64,000 nucleotides of DNA from Candidatus Bathyarchaeota archaeon (GTDB lineage Archaea; Thermoproteota; Bathyarchaeia; TCS64). This document shows, one piece after another, positions 4,745 to 14,538 of this stretch; positions within the stretch are counted from its first letter, which is position 1, and the number at the start of each line of letters is the position of its first letter. The stretch is from NCBI GenBank assembly GCA_043826455.1, contig JBDRQD010000015.1, positions 160,001 to 224,000 on the forward strand. Reading direction: 5' to 3'. A model generated the notes under the pieces. The model searched no databases, had not been told where the DNA came from, and saw nothing but the letters and a program-made list of their open reading frames with translations. The position numbers and the translations under genes were made by a program.

Positions 4745-4963
4745 TTATTTTTTTGTTTTCTTGGGCTTCTCGCTCTTCTTGTGGGTTTTTCCGCAGGCCT
4801 TGCACCAGTACTCCCACTCAAAAACAGGTCCTCTTGCTTGGTCGACAGGGTCCATGCTCGCTCCTATGGATACCAGTACAGCTTCTCCTCCGCACTCGCA
4901 TGGTTCCCTTTTTTTCATCCCAAGTGCATCTTTCATAGCTTCCTTCACTTTTTCGAGTGCCAT
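4745..4963 (-). CDS. Small Zn-ribbon-like protein
   Basis: CECGG...WCKACG, Lys-rich tail; ATG start next to an AT-rich promoter region. Confidence 0.6.
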   Translation of the reverse strand: MALEKVKEAMKDALGMKKREPCECGGEAVLVSIGASMDPVDQARGPVFEWEYWCKACGKTHKKSEKPKKTKK

Positions 4964-5123
4964 ATGTCTACACCATTTTATTATTACCGTCTCCTGTAGA
5001 TAAATGCTATTTCAATTATTTATAGTTAATTTAATTTTATTAAAATTTAAAATAGCTAGTATCTTAATAATGTAACTTATCTTATATACATCTTATCATA
5101 ATAACTATCTTTCGGAGAACTAT

Positions 5124-5918
5124 ATGTCTTCAGTGATAGTTCCCGGTACAAGTTTAAGCGCAGTGGTTTTACTAGTAATCGCAGCCGCTTCCTACTACTA
5201 CTTCGAGAAAATTAAGGACCCAACATATCAACCAACGCTCAGGGACATCCCTGCTATAACCGCCATCAAGGAGGGCGTCGGGAAAAGCTTGGAGGAGGAT
5301 AAACCCGTCCACTACCAGATGGGCGCCAGTGGAGGACAGTTGTACAGTACACTTGTCTCGATGACCCTGGTCGCTTTGACGTTCCTGCGGTACATCAGCC
5401 GTCTATGCGCGGAGATGGGGGCGAGGCTCATTGTCCACATGCCCTACCAGGCCGAGAGCATCCCTCTGATCGAGGGTACGACTCTTGAAGGCTACAAGGA
5501 GGCTGGTAAACCTGAGGAGTTCAAGAGAGAGAATCTACGCTACTATGGACGTGGCGCACTCACGTGGACTCAAGGTGTTACAAAAAGCTTTTCTCAGGAA
5601 GGTGTGGGTCTCAATCTCGCCATAGGCATCTTTTACAGTGACTGCCCAATAAGTCTGGAGATGGCTAAGTACATGGGCGGGCTTAACGTCGGCGGCACAG
5701 GTCGCTGGATCATGGTATACGCTTTTGCCATGATGTGCGACTATGTCTTCTTGGGAGAAGAGATCTACGCAGCCGCAGCCGTTGTGAGCCAGGACAAGAT
5801 GATGCTGGTCGGAATGCTGATAGAAGAGGTCGGGAAGTTCTTCGTCTTCCTGCTACTAGGGTTAGGGTTAATCCTCTCTCTGGTGGGCATGGACATAGTG
5901 TCATTGTTATCGATGTGA
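5124..5918 (+). CDS. DUF6754-like membrane protein (gene 1 of four-gene membrane cassette)
   Basis: N-terminal TM, LRDIPAITAIKEGVGKSLEEDKPVH, DYVFLGEEIYAAAAVVS, C-terminal TM; resembles DUF6754 (recognised from memory). Confidence 0.65.
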   Translation: MSSVIVPGTSLSAVVLLVIAAASYYYFEKIKDPTYQPTLRDIPAITAIKEGVGKSLEEDKPVHYQMGASGGQLYSTLVSMTLVALTFLRYISRLCAEMGARLIVHMPYQAESIPLIEGTTLEGYKEAGKPEEFKRENLRYYGRGALTWTQGVTKSFSQEGVGLNLAIGIFYSDCPISLEMAKYMGGLNVGGTGRWIMVYAFAMMCDYVFLGEEIYAAAAVVSQDKMMLVGMLIEEVGKFFVFLLLGLGLILSLVGMDIVSLLSM

Positions 5919-6568
5919 TGAATATGTCTGCAACATGGAGAACCTTAATACCAACCCTGTTAGTGTCCGTGACAGCAATCCTAGTATTGGTGCCCTTCTT
6001 CCTCAACATCCCATTTCTGAATGACTTTAAGAGCACACTCAGCAGCTGGACCGTTATCATCAGCGCAGTCACCGGTGCCGCTCTTGGGGTAGTCTACATG
6101 ACTCACGCCATCTACGCCAGCTACCAGAGAAATAAGGATACCGAGCAGCTGATAATGGGTGTAACCACCTATGTTTTCATAGCACTTCACATAGGTCTTG
6201 CTCTGACTCAGCCTGGTGGCGTCAACAGCTCCGCGTACCAGTGGTGGTACACGGTGGTGTACCAGAACGTGGGCGCAACGATCTACGCCTTCATGTTCTT
6301 CACCCTCGCAAGCAGCGCATACAGAACAATGATTCTGAACAGCGTCGAGGCAACATCCCTAGCGATAGGTGGACTAATATACACTTTGAGACAGATACCC
6401 CTCTTCCAGACCTGGCTCCCGTGGATAGTTCCACTCGGTGAGTGGATACTTCTAGTCCCCAACGTAGCCGGAAGCCGTGGCGCCGTAATCGCGGCCGCCC
6501 TGGCAGCAACGGTGTACGGAGTCAGAACCATCTGGGGCAAGGAGATTAGCCTCAGGGAGGTGTCCTAA
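5918..6568 (+). CDS. Conserved hypothetical polytopic membrane protein (cassette gene 2)
   Basis: ATG overlaps upstream stop (TGATG); ~6 TM; ASSAYR, WILLVPNVAGSRG, GVRTIWGKE motifs. Confidence 0.75.
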   Translation: MNMSATWRTLIPTLLVSVTAILVLVPFFLNIPFLNDFKSTLSSWTVIISAVTGAALGVVYMTHAIYASYQRNKDTEQLIMGVTTYVFIALHIGLALTQPGGVNSSAYQWWYTVVYQNVGATIYAFMFFTLASSAYRTMILNSVEATSLAIGGLIYTLRQIPLFQTWLPWIVPLGEWILLVPNVAGSRGAVIAAALAATVYGVRTIWGKEISLREVS

Positions 6569-6569
6569 C

Positions 6570-7424
6570 ATGAGTGACAGACCCGCAGGCAAAGACGAGA
6601 GCATCATCGTAAAGCTAGGCACATTACCGCCCAACCTATACTTCTGGGTCCACCTCGCAGGCATCATACTGATGTTCATCCCGTTAATCTATCCCCTCGG
6701 TCTACCTGTTCAAACCAGCCAGCCAGTAATAGACTACGTTAATACCCTTGACGCTCTACCAGAGGGCAGCGTCGTGGCCGTTAGCTTCGGCGCAAGCGCC
6801 TCTCTCCTCGACGAACAGGAGGCACAGTTCCTGGCGACGTGGAAGATACTCTTCAGCAACAAACTGAAGGTAATATTCTATAGCACGACAGAGGACGCCA
6901 ATATCATCCTCGACCGTGAGCTAGGAGTGGTTAAGCCAAGTAGCTACGGCTACACCTATGGAGTTGACTATGTACTGCTGGGCTACAGCCCCCTAGGTGA
7001 AGCAGGTGAAGCAGCGTTTGTCCAGAACATCCGCAGCCTGTACCCAGTTGACTACTACGGTACCCCGTTGAACAATATACCTTTGATGAAGGACATAAAC
7101 GACGCGAGTGGAATAGATCTAGTAATCTTCGAGTACACAGCATGTACGAGCGTCGAGTGGGTGATCCGTCAGTGGGTCGTGCCCTTCAACAAGCCTGCAT
7201 TAGGAACGACTCTTGGCTGCTGTGGACCTATGGCTGCGCCCTATTACCCTAGCCAGCTCAAGGGCTTCCTGAGTGGAAGTGGAGCCGGGACCGAGATCGA
7301 GGTCGTGTCCGGTTTCCCTGGCCCAGGGGCAGCTATGAGTGACAGCAAGAGCTTAGGCATACTACCGTGGCTGTTAAGCATGGTTTTCGCGAACCTTGCT
7401 TGGTTCCTTAGGAGGTCGAAGTAG
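6570..7424 (+). CDS. Conserved hypothetical membrane-anchored protein with soluble alpha/beta domain (cassette gene 3)
   Basis: Starts 1 nt after upstream stop, preceded by GGAGGTG; TM at both ends; YGVDYVLLGY and PVDYYGTPL motifs. Confidence 0.75.
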   Translation: MSDRPAGKDESIIVKLGTLPPNLYFWVHLAGIILMFIPLIYPLGLPVQTSQPVIDYVNTLDALPEGSVVAVSFGASASLLDEQEAQFLATWKILFSNKLKVIFYSTTEDANIILDRELGVVKPSSYGYTYGVDYVLLGYSPLGEAGEAAFVQNIRSLYPVDYYGTPLNNIPLMKDINDASGIDLVIFEYTACTSVEWVIRQWVVPFNKPALGTTLGCCGPMAAPYYPSQLKGFLSGSGAGTEIEVVSGFPGPGAAMSDSKSLGILPWLLSMVFANLAWFLRRSK

Positions 7425-7425
7425 C

Positions 7426-8052
7426 ATGGCTGATCTATTAATGGGACTCGTGGGCACCTTCTTCATAGTCGCAACTCTATCCGTTCTGTGGAAAGACAAC
7501 ATTGTATTCCGCTTCGGACAGGCAGCCGTTATGGGCGCTGCCACCGCTCACTACATGATTATGAGCGCGACGAGCATCCAGAGCATGGTCCTGTCGCAGA
7601 TGCAACTGATACCGATAATTGGCCTAATACTGGGTTTGCTGATGTACACGAGGCTATTTAGCAAGATCGCGTGGGTCAGCAAGTACCCGAGCAGCATCCT
7701 GGTCGGCGTAGGCATAGGCGTTATGCTGGCTGGGACGATTAAAGGCCAGATACTTCAGCAGGTAGGTATGACACTCGGCGACATCCAGACCGCGTTGTTC
7801 ACCACAGGCGACTCCGTAGCCATACTGAACAGCATACTGATCTTCATAGGCGTGGTAACCAGTCTAACCTACTTCCTCTTCACGATAGAGCACAAGGGGA
7901 CGGTGGGCATCCTCGCGAAGGTTGGACGCGTATTCCTGATGATATCATTGGGAGCCAACTTCTCAGGGGAGCTCGTCTGGTACCAGACGCAGATGATCGG
8001 TAGGCTAATGTTCATAATACAGAACCTTTTAGCGCCTCTAGGATTAGCTTAA
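7426..8052 (+). CDS. Conserved hypothetical polytopic membrane protein (cassette gene 4)
   Basis: GGAGGT RBS, ATG 1 nt after upstream stop; LWKDN, YFLFTIEHKG, FLMISLGANF, IGRL motifs; ~6 TM. Confidence 0.75.
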   Translation: MADLLMGLVGTFFIVATLSVLWKDNIVFRFGQAAVMGAATAHYMIMSATSIQSMVLSQMQLIPIIGLILGLLMYTRLFSKIAWVSKYPSSILVGVGIGVMLAGTIKGQILQQVGMTLGDIQTALFTTGDSVAILNSILIFIGVVTSLTYFLFTIEHKGTVGILAKVGRVFLMISLGANFSGELVWYQTQMIGRLMFIIQNLLAPLGLA

Positions 8053-8062
8053 ACTAACAGAT

Positions 8063-8075
8063 CCTTCCTTTTTTT
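8063..8075 (+). terminator. Oligo-T archaeal terminator after four-gene cassette
   Basis: CCTTCCTTTTTTT ~10-20 nt after the stop at 8052. Confidence 0.5.
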
Positions 8076-8127: not shown

Positions 8128-9465
8128 ATGATGAGTACAAATCTTTGGAAAAGGAAATCAGCTCAAGTATCCGAGATCCCTGGAACAAAGGTCAAAGAAG
8201 CATTAGTCAAAGCCGGGCTCCCCCTGGACTCAGTGTACCCCCTAGCTGAGAGGGCTGAGGGCGTTTGGATCCAGGACATAGACGGCAACGTCTTCATGGA
8301 CTTCATCAGCGGCAGATGCACAGTGAACTGTGGTCACAACCACCCACGCCTACTGAAGGCGGTTCAGGAGCAGGTCGGGAAGGTGACTCATGGTCTCACA
8401 CCTAACAGGCTTCAACTCCTTGAGTCGTTGAAAAAAGTATCACCCTTCAAAGGCGAGGAACAGGCAATGACGTTGGCCCTCAGCGGTAGCGCGGCCAACG
8501 ACGCGGCCATGAAGCTCGCCCGAAGCTACACCCGCAGACAGAACTTCATCGCCTTCGCGGGCGCCTACCATGGCACCACGTTCGGCGCCATGGCTCTCAG
8601 CAGCTACGTGACGAGGATGAGGGAGCAGTTCTACCCCATGGTGCCAGGCGTGTGCCACATGCCCTTTCCGCACTGCTTCAGGTGCCCGTTCGGCCACAAA
8701 TCCAATGAGGAGTGTGGCATGGCGTGCCTCGACTACATTACAAAGTATGCGGCGAAGACTTACTGTCCACCGAGCGAGGTCGCGGCCGTGATCATGGAGC
8801 CCATCGCAGGCGACGCAGGGTGGCTGGTGCCCCCGAAGGAGTTCGTCGTAGGGATCAGAAAATGGTGCAGTGAAAACGATATCCTGTACATAAGCGAGGA
8901 GGTGCAGGCAGGCTACGGCAGAGCCGGCGAGTGGTGGGGCGTAAACCTCTGGGGCGTGGAGCCCGACGCCATAATCCTGGGCAAGGCCATGGCGGGCGGG
9001 ATGGCCCCCATGAGCGGCGTCCTCTACAAGAGTGAGCTGGGTAAGAACGGCTTCTACCACGGCCACACCATGGGGGGCCACCCGGTGGGCTGCGCAGCTT
9101 CAATAGCCAACATAGGCGTGATCCGGGACGAGCGCCTTTGCGAGGCCTCCAAGAAAATGGGTAAACACCTGATGAGCCGCCTCAACAAGATGAAGGACGA
9201 CTACGAGCCCATCATCGATGTCAGAGGCAGGGGCCTCCTGATAGGCGTCGAGATCGGAGGCGTACACGGCCGTACCAGTAAGGAGATGGCCGGCGAGATA
9301 TGCAAGAGCGCTTTCAGGAAAGGGCTGTACATAATAGAGATGGGGAGCTGGGACACGGGTGTCCTGAGGGTGGCGCCTCCTCTGGTGATCACGGGTGAGC
9401 AGGCGGACTGGGCGCTGAACACCTTGGAAGAAGCCGTCCGCGAGACCTTGAGGAAGTATAAATGA
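8128..9465 (+). CDS. Class III PLP-dependent aminotransferase-family enzyme (possibly amino-acid racemase/epimerase subtype)
   Basis: DIDGNVFMDFISG, SGSAAND, YHGTT, EPIAGDAG, EEVQAGYGR, LGKAMAGG (PLP Lys), DVRGRGLLIG. Confidence 0.88.
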   Translation: MMSTNLWKRKSAQVSEIPGTKVKEALVKAGLPLDSVYPLAERAEGVWIQDIDGNVFMDFISGRCTVNCGHNHPRLLKAVQEQVGKVTHGLTPNRLQLLESLKKVSPFKGEEQAMTLALSGSAANDAAMKLARSYTRRQNFIAFAGAYHGTTFGAMALSSYVTRMREQFYPMVPGVCHMPFPHCFRCPFGHKSNEECGMACLDYITKYAAKTYCPPSEVAAVIMEPIAGDAGWLVPPKEFVVGIRKWCSENDILYISEEVQAGYGRAGEWWGVNLWGVEPDAIILGKAMAGGMAPMSGVLYKSELGKNGFYHGHTMGGHPVGCAASIANIGVIRDERLCEASKKMGKHLMSRLNKMKDDYEPIIDVRGRGLLIGVEIGGVHGRTSKEMAGEICKSAFRKGLYIIEMGSWDTGVLRVAPPLVITGEQADWALNTLEEAVRETLRKYK

Positions 9466-9755
9466 AGCTGTTCGACTGGTGGGGTAAGATCGTCACAGAG
9501 GAAGAGGAGACGCAGATGCTCCACCGGATCGAGGCGAAGATAAAGACGTATGGAGGCGAGACAGCGGCGCTCCTGGCCATCAGGGCCTTCAAGTACGTCA
9601 GCTACATAGGAGTGATGATGGGCCGGGTCTTTCTGGGCCCGCTGACTCCCATAATCACCCACGAGCACGACATTTTCCTCACCACCATCGGCAGGCGCGA
9701 AAACCTTGAATTACTGGAGGAGGCCCTCGATGAGTCAAGACGCGCCAAAACCTAG
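9462..9755 (+). CDS. Hypothetical protein
   Basis: ATGA overlap with the upstream stop; plausible composition. Confidence 0.6.
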   Translation: MKLFDWWGKIVTEEEETQMLHRIEAKIKTYGGETAALLAIRAFKYVSYIGVMMGRVFLGPLTPIITHEHDIFLTTIGRRENLELLEEALDESRRAKT

Positions 9756-10113
9756 CCCCCGGGAAATATTGATATCGTTAGTCGTGGCCTTCAGTATTTT
9801 CCTCATAACCGCTCTCCTAGCGCTCCCCCCCAGTTACAACGACTACAACGATCTTGTCATCAACTTCTTTTACATGGCTCCAGGCCCCCTGGTGGCGTCT
9901 CTGGTGCTGGCCAAGGTCTACCAGCGGAACGCCGTGAACAGGGGCGTCCTGATAGGCATCGTCACATACTTCCTGAGCCCCCTGGTGCTGCCCAGCGGGG
10001 GGATGGTCTGGGTTCTAGAGGCCGCCAGACTGGGCGGCGCAGGATTTGGCGGCGCCATAGGCGCCAGAATCATGGAGCTGTACCGGGCTAAGGGCTCCAG
10101 TGAGGAGAGGTAG
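9730..10113 (+). CDS. Hypothetical membrane protein (~4 TM)
   Basis: GGAGG upstream of ATG 9730; hydrophobic segments. Confidence 0.55.
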   Translation: MSQDAPKPSPREILISLVVAFSIFLITALLALPPSYNDYNDLVINFFYMAPGPLVASLVLAKVYQRNAVNRGVLIGIVTYFLSPLVLPSGGMVWVLEAARLGGAGFGGAIGARIMELYRAKGSSEER

Positions 10114-10238: not shown

Positions 10239-11390
10239 TTGAGGGGAGCTATCCCCCGGATTTCTCACATCGCAATCCTCGTGATAGTCATTCTAGCCGT
10301 TAATACGCCTCAGCCACCCGCTTCGTGTTCAACTGGAGCACTGAGACTCTACGTCATCTCCTGCGAAGGATGTGAAGGTTACAGGGATCGCGTCGATATG
10401 CTGAGGCGCACGTTTCCTACCGCGGCGATTACCTTCTATGAGATAGAGGAGGGGGAGAACGCCAGACGCTTTAACGAGGTATCGAAAGCCGTGGGGGAGA
10501 CTCTGTATATGCCTCTGGTCGGCGTGTATCTTGACGATGCCCTGGTCTCCATCGCTAGTGGAGGGTTCTCGCCTGAGGGATGGGTGGAAGCGGTTGAGAG
10601 TCCGGTCGGGGTTGTTACAGTGTACATCGCCGGCGAGGGTGGGAGGGCGGACATTAAGACCACTATTGAGGACCCCGACACTGTGAACACCGTCTCGAGG
10701 CTCTTCGTCGAAGAGGAGATAGGTTTCCTGGTGGAGGACCTGGGCCAACTCGTCCTCATCGTCGCGTCGGCTGCGATAGTTGACGCGATCAACCCCTGCT
10801 GCGTCGGTGTCTTCACGGTCCTGTTGACGTTGGTCTTCTACGGGGTGGGTAAGAGGGCCGTCCTTGGCGTTGGCCTGGCCTTCACCCTCGGCCTCTTCGC
10901 GGCTTACCTGCTGCTCGGCCTGGGCCTGGGCAGGGTGTTCAGGCAGTTACCTGAGATAGAGTACCTGGCGTCAGGGTTCGCCATAATTCTGGGGGCGATG
11001 CGCATCATTGAAGCCTCAGGCAGGAAGGTGAAGTATCTCCCGGATGCCCTCTCGAGTAGGATAACCCGGAGGATAGAGGAGGTCACCACCCCCAGGAGTG
11101 GGCTTGTCGCCGGGGCGGTGACCGGTTTCCTGCTGTTGCCCTGCTCGTCGGCTCCCTACTTCATAGTTATAAACATGATCGCGGACAAGCCGTCCGTGCT
11201 GGGCCTGGCCCTTCTTGTCTTCTACAACCTGATAATCGTCGCTCCCTTCATCGCGATTACACTGATTGTGTACGGTCTGGTGTTCTCCACCATGGAGGTG
11301 AAGCAGTGGTCCCTTGAGAGTCGCTGGTGGATCAACGCATTGATCGGGGTCACGCTTGTGGCGCTGGGCTTCCTAAACCTGTTACTGTAG
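10239..11390 (+). CDS. CcdA/DsbD-type transmembrane protein with N-terminal thioredoxin-like CxxC domain
   Basis: Signal/TM, CEGC, then TM domain with DAINPCC and LLPCSSAPY cysteine-proline motifs. Confidence 0.75.
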   Translation: MRGAIPRISHIAILVIVILAVNTPQPPASCSTGALRLYVISCEGCEGYRDRVDMLRRTFPTAAITFYEIEEGENARRFNEVSKAVGETLYMPLVGVYLDDALVSIASGGFSPEGWVEAVESPVGVVTVYIAGEGGRADIKTTIEDPDTVNTVSRLFVEEEIGFLVEDLGQLVLIVASAAIVDAINPCCVGVFTVLLTLVFYGVGKRAVLGVGLAFTLGLFAAYLLLGLGLGRVFRQLPEIEYLASGFAIILGAMRIIEASGRKVKYLPDALSSRITRRIEEVTTPRSGLVAGAVTGFLLLPCSSAPYFIVINMIADKPSVLGLALLVFYNLIIVAPFIAITLIVYGLVFSTMEVKQWSLESRWWINALIGVTLVALGFLNLLL

Positions 11391-12750: not shown

Positions 12751-13653
12751 TTGGCGGTAAATTTGATCAAATCAAACGTCGAATCCCTTGTCAGACAGAA
12801 ACTAGTTGGAGAGGTGATCCACCCCGAACTCTGGGTGGAGCGCAACTATGTCACCACCTGGGATGGTAGGCCCAAGCTGACCGTGGGGATCGGAGGCATC
12901 GTCTACAACGTCAGGGTGGGCGACCCGGTTTTCGGTTGGTCGTCTGACCATCTGAACGCAGGGGCAGCTGTCTCCCACAAGGATCAGTCGAGGATGATGG
13001 CGCTCAACATATTCAGCTGCATAGGGAACAAGGCCAGGGTCATCAGCGGCGAGGCGAAGGGGACGGAGGGCGTGGTAGTGGGCAAGACCTACTTCTACCC
13101 GGGCCACTCATACAGGATTGTAGTCGATTTCCCTCATGACGGCCTCTCCAAGCTGGCGATAGAGGACAAGGTTGAGGTGGAGGCCTGGGGCTCAGGTCTG
13201 ACCATCGAGGGGTTCGAGGATGTGAGAGTCCTCTCCCTCTCACCTAGGCTGCTTGAGGCGATGGGCGTTGAGGCTCATGACGGTAAGCTGAGGGTGCCAG
13301 TGGTCAAGGAGCTGCCAGGGAAGATGATGGGGGTTGGCGTGGGCCGAGGGCCGACGGAGTGCGGTGCCTGGGAGATCCAGTCCTGCAGCCGCGAGCTCAA
13401 CGAGGAGCTGGGGCTTGAGAGGTTGAGGTTCGGGGACTTGGTCGCGGTGAGGGACGTGGACTCCGACTGGGGGCACGGCGTCTACGAGGGCGGCGTCGTG
13501 GTCGGCGTCGTCTCTCATGGCGCCAGCGAGATAGGCGGCCACGGCCCGGGGATAGCCGTCATATTCTCGTCCAAGAGGGGAAGAATCGAGCCCGTCATCG
13601 ACGAGGGGGCCAACGTTGGCCGGTACCTCGGCCTCAGAGTAGACCTGGAGTGA
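12751..13653 (+). CDS. DUF4438 family protein (paralog 1)
   Basis: TTG start; GIVYNVRVGDP, SDH, SCIGNKARVISGEAKG, LRFGDLVAV, GHGPG motifs. Confidence 0.75.
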   Translation: MAVNLIKSNVESLVRQKLVGEVIHPELWVERNYVTTWDGRPKLTVGIGGIVYNVRVGDPVFGWSSDHLNAGAAVSHKDQSRMMALNIFSCIGNKARVISGEAKGTEGVVVGKTYFYPGHSYRIVVDFPHDGLSKLAIEDKVEVEAWGSGLTIEGFEDVRVLSLSPRLLEAMGVEAHDGKLRVPVVKELPGKMMGVGVGRGPTECGAWEIQSCSRELNEELGLERLRFGDLVAVRDVDSDWGHGVYEGGVVVGVVSHGASEIGGHGPGIAVIFSSKRGRIEPVIDEGANVGRYLGLRVDLE

Positions 13654-13659
13654 GGAAGC

Positions 13660-14538
13660 TTGCGTACTAACGTTGATCGTCTCGTGAAGCAGGCGGTCAT
13701 GGGGGAGGTGTCACACCCCATGGCCGGGACGTACAGGACCACCTTCGAGGGGAGGCCCAGCATGGTGCCGGGGATGTACGGCGTCAAGCTCAACTTCAGG
13801 GTCGGTGACCCCGCCTACGGTTACGTCTCGGACCATCTTGAGCCCGGCGTATGCATCGTGAACCCTGGCTCGGTGCGGCAGCACACGGCCCTCAACGCCT
13901 TCGCCTGCATAGGGAACGAGGCGAGGGTGGTGTCAGGCGACGCGAGGGGCGCCGCAGGTGTCGTGACGGGTAAGCACGGATGGCAGAACACGTTCATAGA
14001 CTTCCCCCCGGAGGTCCTCGGGAAGCTGGTGTCGGGGGATAAGGTTCAGGTGACGGGCTGGGGCACTGGCCTCACGGTGGAGGGCTACGAGGACCTTCGG
14101 TTCATGTCCATGTCGCCGCGCCTCCTCAAGGCCCTGGGGGTGGAGGATGAGGGCTCCAGCCTCTCCGTCCCGGTTGTGATGGAGGTTCCCGGCAGGATGA
14201 TGGGCTCCGGGATGGGAGGAGGGACGGGAGGCATGCCGGACCTTGGGGACTTTGACATCCAGAGCACCTGCCCGGAGCTCACCGAGAGGTACGGCTTTTC
14301 GCGGCTCCGCATAGGCGACATAGTGGCCATAAGGGACATCCTGGCTCACTACGCCCGGGGTATACACCCGGGGGCTGTCACCATTGCTGTCGTTTCCCAT
14401 GGGGCGAGCGGGACCACAGGCCACGGGCCTGGGTGCGCGCCCATCATCTCTAGTCCTCCGGGGAGGGTTAGCCCAGTCGCAGACGAGGGGATGAACGTCG
14501 CCCGCCTGTTGGAGCTGCGGCCAGACATTGCCTGGTGA
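13660..14538 (+). CDS. DUF4438 family protein (paralog 2)
   Basis: TTG start; NFRVGDP, DHLEPGV, ACIGNEARVVSGDARG, GKHG, LRIGDIVAI, GHGPG; colinear with paralog 1. Confidence 0.78.
   Translation: MRTNVDRLVKQAVMGEVSHPMAGTYRTTFEGRPSMVPGMYGVKLNFRVGDPAYGYVSDHLEPGVCIVNPGSVRQHTALNAFACIGNEARVVSGDARGAAGVVTGKHGWQNTFIDFPPEVLGKLVSGDKVQVTGWGTGLTVEGYEDLRFMSMSPRLLKALGVEDEGSSLSVPVVMEVPGRMMGSGMGGGTGGMPDLGDFDIQSTCPELTERYGFSRLRIGDIVAIRDILAHYARGIHPGAVTIAVVSHGASGTTGHGPGCAPIISSPPGRVSPVADEGMNVARLLELRPDIAW

Follow-up and report, generated by a model that had tools for sequence, protein, structure and literature searches.

A conserved four-gene membrane module of Candidatus Bathyarchaeota as a candidate importer module associated with a GlmL-like ATPase

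What would four tightly coupled genes for membrane proteins do in an archaeal cell, and by what would their products be powered? The question is raised by a cassette of four genes, here named A, B, C and D (Table 1), in a 64,000-nucleotide stretch of the genome of a Candidatus Bathyarchaeota archaeon (contig JBDRQD010000015.1, positions 160,001 to 224,000 of the forward strand; the whole stretch is called the window below). An earlier note, written from the DNA letters, had regarded the cassette as a conserved membrane module without described function and, more specifically, as an ATP-independent uptake system for amino acids or peptides. The module itself is confirmed; its ATP independence is doubtful, because the module is nearly always accompanied by a GlmL-like ATPase of the ASKHA type, named G, and by a partner protein, named H. 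With a probability of about one half, we read A-B-C-D as the substrate-specific module of an undescribed ATP-coupled importer that is energised by a shared G-H pair; that it transports, that its subunits form a complex and that ATP drives it are proposals made here from sequence comparison. In a literature search that mostly left subscription journals aside, no description was found of such a system, nor of DUF6754, PF20539 or PF13941, the families to which A and G belong.

Conservation of the module and its partner proteins

A scan of GTDB genomes, in which 611 stretches were confirmed and 79 archaeal and bacterial loci were kept, served as a check, set beforehand, on the co-occurrence of the four genes elsewhere. 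A-B-C-D is complete in 68 of the 79 loci, nine others being cut by contig ends and two holding an orphan A, and the gene order is the same in 22/22 cassettes from 20 regions of the source genome and its relatives. The outcome that would have spoken against the note, a lack of co-occurrence, is thus clearly contradicted. Protein A belongs to DUF6754 (PF20539), as had been proposed, and is a divergent member of it; its score of 107 bits is the lowest among the eight copies in the genome and lies above the curated cut-off of 27. These eight A-B-C-D copies are mutually 23-55% identical. The A profile gathers 2,590 clusters at 50% identity, with up to 15 matches in one genome; the A family occurs in none of 14 control genomes. 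According to record titles, the sources of the loci include Bathyarchaeia, Methanomethylicia, Bacillota, WOR-3, Zixibacteria, Eisenbacteria, Cloacimonadota, Fermentibacteraceae and Acidobacteriota, and the A family is found mostly in uncultured lineages, among them Bathyarchaeia, Cloacimonadota, WOR-3, Zixibacteria and Bacillota. Among relatives, C is 65% identical in Ca. Bathyarchaeota and a paralogous A reaches 82% in Ca. Bathyarchaeia. Three cassettes (L060, L080 and L057) are clustered in about 11 kb.

Clustering of neighbouring genes yielded three recurring families: E (about 90-150 aa, no family match), G (about 610 aa, PF13941 or MutL/GlmL, actin-fold ASKHA) and H (about 375 aa, with weak barrel-sandwich hybrid and KOW matches). 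The description as a four-gene system is therefore too narrow, because the small protein E, the ATPase G and its partner H belong to it too, often in one operon; 24 of the 79 loci contain G or H, as a rule in the order E-G-H-A-B-C-D. The source genome encodes five E genes, every one adjoining a cassette, and three G-H pairs, two of them beside other cassettes and one alone; the pair nearest to the present cassette lies about 37 kb away, outside the window.

At the level of whole genomes, G and H go together with A. The class was represented by 151 genomes: A is present in 52, and H is found in 50 of these 52 and in 0 of the 99 A-negative genomes; the two A-positive genomes that lack H count as cases of orphan A, because they have no C or G either. 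Of 301 genomes of a bacterial phylum, 25 carry A and 25 carry H, and 24 carry both (thresholds E 1e-8 and 1e-30). For 50 of the 79 loci, chosen because H was absent from the fetched flank, the genomes were searched; they come from 49 genomes, and an H match was recovered in 48 of these, 43 at E<1e-100, the single miss having a full-length G. Likewise, G occurs in 24 of 26 A-positive relatives and in none of the five A-negative ones. Between archaea and bacteria, H is about 50-55% identical.

The similarity of G to GlmL/MutL (PF13941, NF040745) and Or-4 (NF040744) extends to the Pfam family, matched at E 4e-119, to the GlmL-family model TIGR01319 and to the retained ASKHA motifs: what we take to be the phosphate-1 and adenosine (G[ST]GG) motifs are each present in 24/24 aligned sequences. 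Unlike these proteins, G scores below the NCBIfam cut-offs (218 against 475 for GlmL, 214 against 600 for Or-4), is about 125 residues longer through a C-terminal extension, is paired with H and is tied to a membrane module rather than to a mutase. Hydantoinase_A, MreB-like and BadFG models also match G weakly. A lone pair in the source genome, G'-H' (G000:C47:16821-19456), has an H' of 288 aa and a G' whose phosphate-1 motif is degenerate and whose phosphate-2 Asp is kept, the reverse of what the two main archaeal copies of G show; similar copies (41-46%) are found in many relatives, and the pair may work with G or regulate it.

Predicted architecture of the four subunits

The earlier division into two polytopic proteins and two membrane-anchored proteins with soluble domains is retained for B and D, which are polytopic, and is refined for A and C, which carry two membrane helices each, one at either end. 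In the predicted structures, both proteins share their order of elements and run from a helix through a Rossmann-like domain to a second helix (mean predicted local distance difference test score, pLDDT, of 95.7 for A and 92.6 for C). Charge bias, assessed in 81-125 sequences per subunit, places the domain of A inside, with a mean of 4.8 Lys and Arg residues after the first transmembrane (TM) helix. The N- and C-termini of C are basic and are also placed inside, and its domain would therefore lie outside. Extended homologues of A agree with an outward position of its ends: most of the 47 long ones listed start with a stretch judged by eye to be signal-peptide-like, and in long homologues fn3 or propeller domains precede the core or PKD domains follow it. 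From charge bias and these fusions, the soluble domains of A and C are predicted to lie on opposite faces of the membrane, and C is a candidate substrate-capture subunit.

Fold searches with the models returned near-ties. The best match of C is MTH777 (Z 9.6, root-mean-square deviation, rmsd, 3.5, 138 aligned residues), and the best match of A has Z 9.7 and rmsd 3.3 over 155 aligned residues. RCK/TrkA, sirtuin-like proteins, SIS, transhydrogenase dIII and MTH777 share a generic likeness with both domains (Z 8-9.7, rmsd 3-4 Å, about 10% identity), and none of them points to a function. Solute-binding proteins rank well down among the matches (Z 7.5 for C and 8.8 for A), and the model of C is a single Rossmann-like domain; an ESM Atlas search returned only unnamed or DUF6754 clusters. 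Comparison of A with C gives a probability of 24-33% and E values of 5e-4 to 9e-4, against 0.16-0.37 for the reversed control, with an equal order of helices and strands; this is only suggestive of an old duplication, generic fold likeness being the alternative. A corresponding duplication of B and D is not supported (probability 1.8%, with the reversed control higher).

For B, C and D no Pfam or NCBIfam match was obtained at E 0.05, and PDB sequence searches with profiles of all four subunits and of G and H gave nothing below E 0.04. The hydropathy of B shows four strong segments, and charge alternation across 102 sequences fits six TM helices, so that B is predicted to have about six, with both termini inside; D has six by hydropathy, and charge bias across 81 sequences predicts an outward N-terminus. 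Several conserved residues within or close to the helices are charged or polar: R136 and R187 of B, E244 and N275 of C, and N25, E32 and R186 of D.

A proposed mechanism and its alternatives

In the proposed importer, the outward Rossmann-like domain of C would bind an amino acid, a short peptide or an amide, and B and D, joined by the terminal helices of A and C, would form the path across the membrane. G-H, perhaps via E, may dock on A at its cytoplasmic domain and reset the module through its nucleotide cycle, a step suggested by co-occurrence. The pair would be encoded elsewhere in the genome and be common to all eight module copies, and flanking enzymes would use up the cargo, here probably a racemase converting D-amino acids. 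The neighbourhood of the archaeal copies supports the link to peptide and amino-acid catabolism that had been proposed: peptidases, amidohydrolases or class-III aminotransferases make up 13 of 42 immediate neighbours, against 3 in a sample of 42 out of 58 distant genes (three near-duplicate loci excluded; Fisher p 0.011), and such an enzyme is a direct neighbour of seven of the eight copies in the source genome.

The arrangement invites comparison with known importers. In group II ECF transporters, many scattered substrate-specific membrane parts use one common energising module. The eight modules and three G-H pairs of the source genome follow the same pattern of many modules and few motors. 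Unlike in ECF systems, Pfam and NCBIfam searches with the subunits did not match any S component, EcfT or ABC ATPase, the common ATPase has an actin/Hsp70 fold, and each module comprises four subunits with a predicted soluble domain on each face. With ABC and TRAP importers the module shares a predicted outward soluble domain and permease-like subunits near peptidases. It differs from them in that its subunits match no ABC or TRAP family and C is modelled with one Rossmann-like domain between its two anchoring helices, not as a two-lobed binding protein. A motif check upheld the absence of Walker A and LSGGQ sequences from A-D, the co-occurring ATPase being of PF13941, and at the sequence level the membrane subunits match no family profile of TRAP, MFS or APC carriers.

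We tentatively go further, at less than even odds, and consider that the system may form a new class of its own among primary active transporters, in which an actin/Hsp70-fold ATPase, not an ABC protein, acts as motor and one G-H drives many interchangeable A-B-C-D modules with two oppositely oriented halves; it would supply amino acids and peptides to peptide-fermenting archaea and bacteria, the present copy serving D-amino acids. We know of no transporter family with an ASKHA ATPase as motor. If true, this would be a new way of powering uptake, would help explain how these organisms take up protein breakdown products, and would suggest, for DUF6754 and for the long 'MutL/GlmL' proteins that lack a mutase, a role open to testing.

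Several findings weigh against the importer. A single-contig bacterium (G307) has a full, divergent A-B-C-D (L133, G307:C1:2549510-2552268) without H and with only short GlmL-like genes, and in another genome (G220) G-H is present and no A or C was found. The phosphate-2 Asp of G, present in the 18 bacterial sequences of the alignment, is replaced by Gly in all six archaeal ones; ATP hydrolysis, likely for bacterial G to judge from its motifs, is for this reason uncertain for archaeal G. The fold searches with A and C gave only generic α/β matches and no specific solute-binding or transporter fold. Bacterial neighbours, for which amino-acid catabolic enzymes such as glycine cleavage were counted too, show a weak bias (16/95 against 8/95 distant genes, p 0.125; 95 of 110 near genes and 95 of the 110 distant genes drawn were used). 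Because the genomes, like the loci, are not independent of each other by descent, p-values overstate the case. A very divergent archaeal cassette (L043:6590-11005) lies beside a Zn-dehydrogenase, an FGGY kinase and an aldolase, so the cargo need not always be a peptide; this locus suggests that some paralogues carry sugars or polyols instead.

A layout with one domain per face is also that of a receptor, and the fn3, β-propeller or PKD extensions on A in many bacteria, like the unrelated neighbours around many bacterial copies, would suit a machine of the cell envelope that imports no nutrient and serves, driven by G-H, for sensing external peptides, for export or for remodelling. We consider this unlikely, as the neighbours include no recurring family of kinases, cyclases or regulators, and a set of four membrane subunits that together have about 16 helices, expanded beside varied catabolic enzymes, appears better suited to a transporter. 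Should A-B-C-D be a transporter that stands alone, ion-driven or facilitated, G, H and E would serve only for regulation or assembly. The lack of an ATPase motif in the four genes, the conserved charged or polar residues of B, C and D, the retention of A-B-C-D without H in G307 and the altered phosphate-2 motif of archaeal G all speak for such a carrier, but the near-obligate co-occurrence of G and H in two independent lineages and the identity of H across domains suggest that G-H is more than a dispensable regulator and make it rather improbable.

A different role for G and H would be group translocation or another membrane-coupled chemistry, with a hydantoinase-A- or kinase-like G activating the entering substrate and H acting as a mobile carrier, as in the phosphotransferase system (PTS). 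The matches of G to Hydantoinase_A (19/24 members), its invariant His248, His387, His433 and Cys486, and the barrel-sandwich hybrid matches of H (15/22 members, with one weak match to the mobile domain of phosphoenolpyruvate utilisers) lend themselves to this chemistry. It is nevertheless quite improbable: a single G-H would need to serve many substrates, and no PTS-type phospho-carrier residue is evident, because no His or Cys is conserved in 60% of the H sequences and none above 72% in A-D, Cys205 of A being conserved in 72%. Nor is a likeness to Rnf or Nqr apparent, B, C and D having no conserved Cys and H giving only weak barrel-sandwich matches with RnfC/NqrA. Scarcely credible is a G that reactivates a B12-dependent mutase and is linked to A-B-C-D incidentally, since its matches to PF13941 and TIGR01319, families in which MutL/GlmL is the reactivating chaperone of glutamate mutase according to PMC4682846, stand against scores far under the GlmL and Or-4 cut-offs and about 125 extra residues, against the absence of a mutase among the recurring neighbours, and against profile searches of the source genome (with weak controls) that found neither PF06368 nor PF09043, and neither a subunit of glutamate mutase nor one of lysine aminomutase.

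The cassette and its neighbouring genes

The features of the locus are listed in Table 1. Tight coupling of the four genes was confirmed along with their reading frames: A and B overlap in TGATG, and gaps of 1 nt separate B from C and C from D. Ribosome-binding sites of the form GGAGG, which had been ascribed to the cassette as a whole, precede only C and D, with a GGAG ahead of A and none ahead of B. The AT-rich sequence upstream of A is likely an archaeal promoter, judging from its TATA-like element, and the run of seven T residues after D, already seen as an oligo-T run, is a possible archaeal terminator.

Table 1. Features of the A-B-C-D cassette and its surroundings (positions in the window)
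Feature	Position	Strand	Length	Basis
A, DUF6754 subunit	5124-5918	+	264 aa	PF20539, Pfam E 8.6e-31
B, polytopic subunit	5918-6568	+	216 aa	no family match
C, two-helix-anchored subunit	6570-7424	+	284 aa	no family match
D, polytopic subunit	7426-8052	+	208 aa	no family match
AT-rich intergenic region (21% GC)	4964-5123			TATA-like TTATATA 5082-5088, GGAG 5114-5117
T7 run 3' of D	8069-8075	+		sequence
Class-III pyridoxal phosphate (PLP) enzyme	8128-9465	+		closest solved relatives are racemases
E, small subunit	9462-9755	+	97 aa	family-E profile E 2.3e-12; blastp
Small membrane protein	9733-10113	+		DUF3792-like, Pfam E 2e-4, below cut-off

RNA libraries (four runs) contain contigs of close relatives that cover mainly 5124-8035, one of them, of 2,125 nt, reaching from A to the start of D; these contigs give only a hint of expression, carry no information on level, strand or ends, and their absence elsewhere is uninformative. 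In two runs they stop near 8030-8035, a weak hint for a terminator after D. A palindrome near 5040 does exist, with arms at 5030-5039 and 5041-5050 that are complementary at 9 of 10 positions; it was given no weight and dropped as a signal, because such pairs are expected in DNA of 21% guanine and cytosine (GC) and six others occur in the same sequence. The hand counts behind the reported GC contrast are exact (0.533, 0.517 and 0.692), but 69% is only a local high of the S9 gene, which has 63.4% overall, compared with 52.3% for the cassette, 59.1% for the window and 57.8% for the genome. A recent horizontal origin was set aside, low GC being weak evidence of it because the genes of the seven other module copies cover 45-60%. 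Divergent from A, and sharing its AT-rich upstream region, is an open reading frame of 72 aa on the minus strand (4745-4963) with two CxxC motifs.

The PLP enzyme directly downstream is, as had been noted, racemase-like. Its closest solved relatives are the Ala/Ser racemase 9wqz (E 1.5e-88), 7vno, the broad-specificity racemase 9wrf and Ile 2-epimerase, and its D229 and K286 align with D234 and K291 of ASR at the same spacing of 57 residues, the numbering of ASR allowing for a 20-residue tag offset that we infer. Both ASR residues are essential according to PMC6047364; in the racemase alignment, 7vno has Glu at the corresponding site. While the catalytic Asp and Lys are thus aligned as in ASR, BAR and Ile 2-epimerase, the enzyme scores below the NCBIfam racemase cut-offs; from its aligned residues it is likely an amino-acid racemase. 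It reads EEVQ where the solved relatives have DEVQ. The same enzyme followed by E stands after D in four further loci (L038, L039, L041 and L049) and is missing from two close orthologous loci (L040 and L042); it is a client gene of the cassette. DmpA (S58), which had been counted as close by, lies 3.4 kb off on the opposite strand.

The small membrane protein at 9733-10113 is possibly the archaeal accessory gene F, as judged from sequence likeness and position: family F matches the same Pfam entry (DUF3792) weakly and holds the same position in L041 and L042, and no direct match between this protein and F members was obtained. Further downstream, a 383-aa membrane protein (10239-11390) has a CxxC motif and weak DsbD_2/SfLAP matches; its homologues follow E-F in L041 (46%) and L042 (32%), a linkage kept in the subfamily. 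Two tandem DUF4438 genes occupy 12751-14538, and DUF4438 is also found near cassettes in L120 and L053. On the bacterial side, several Eisenbacteria and Fermentibacteraceae loci (L063, L075, L076, L088, L094 and similar ones) carry E-G-H-A-B-C-D after genes of the glycine cleavage system and one more small gene for a membrane protein, and in L063 and L083 the operon abuts a gene for a family-5 solute-binding protein.

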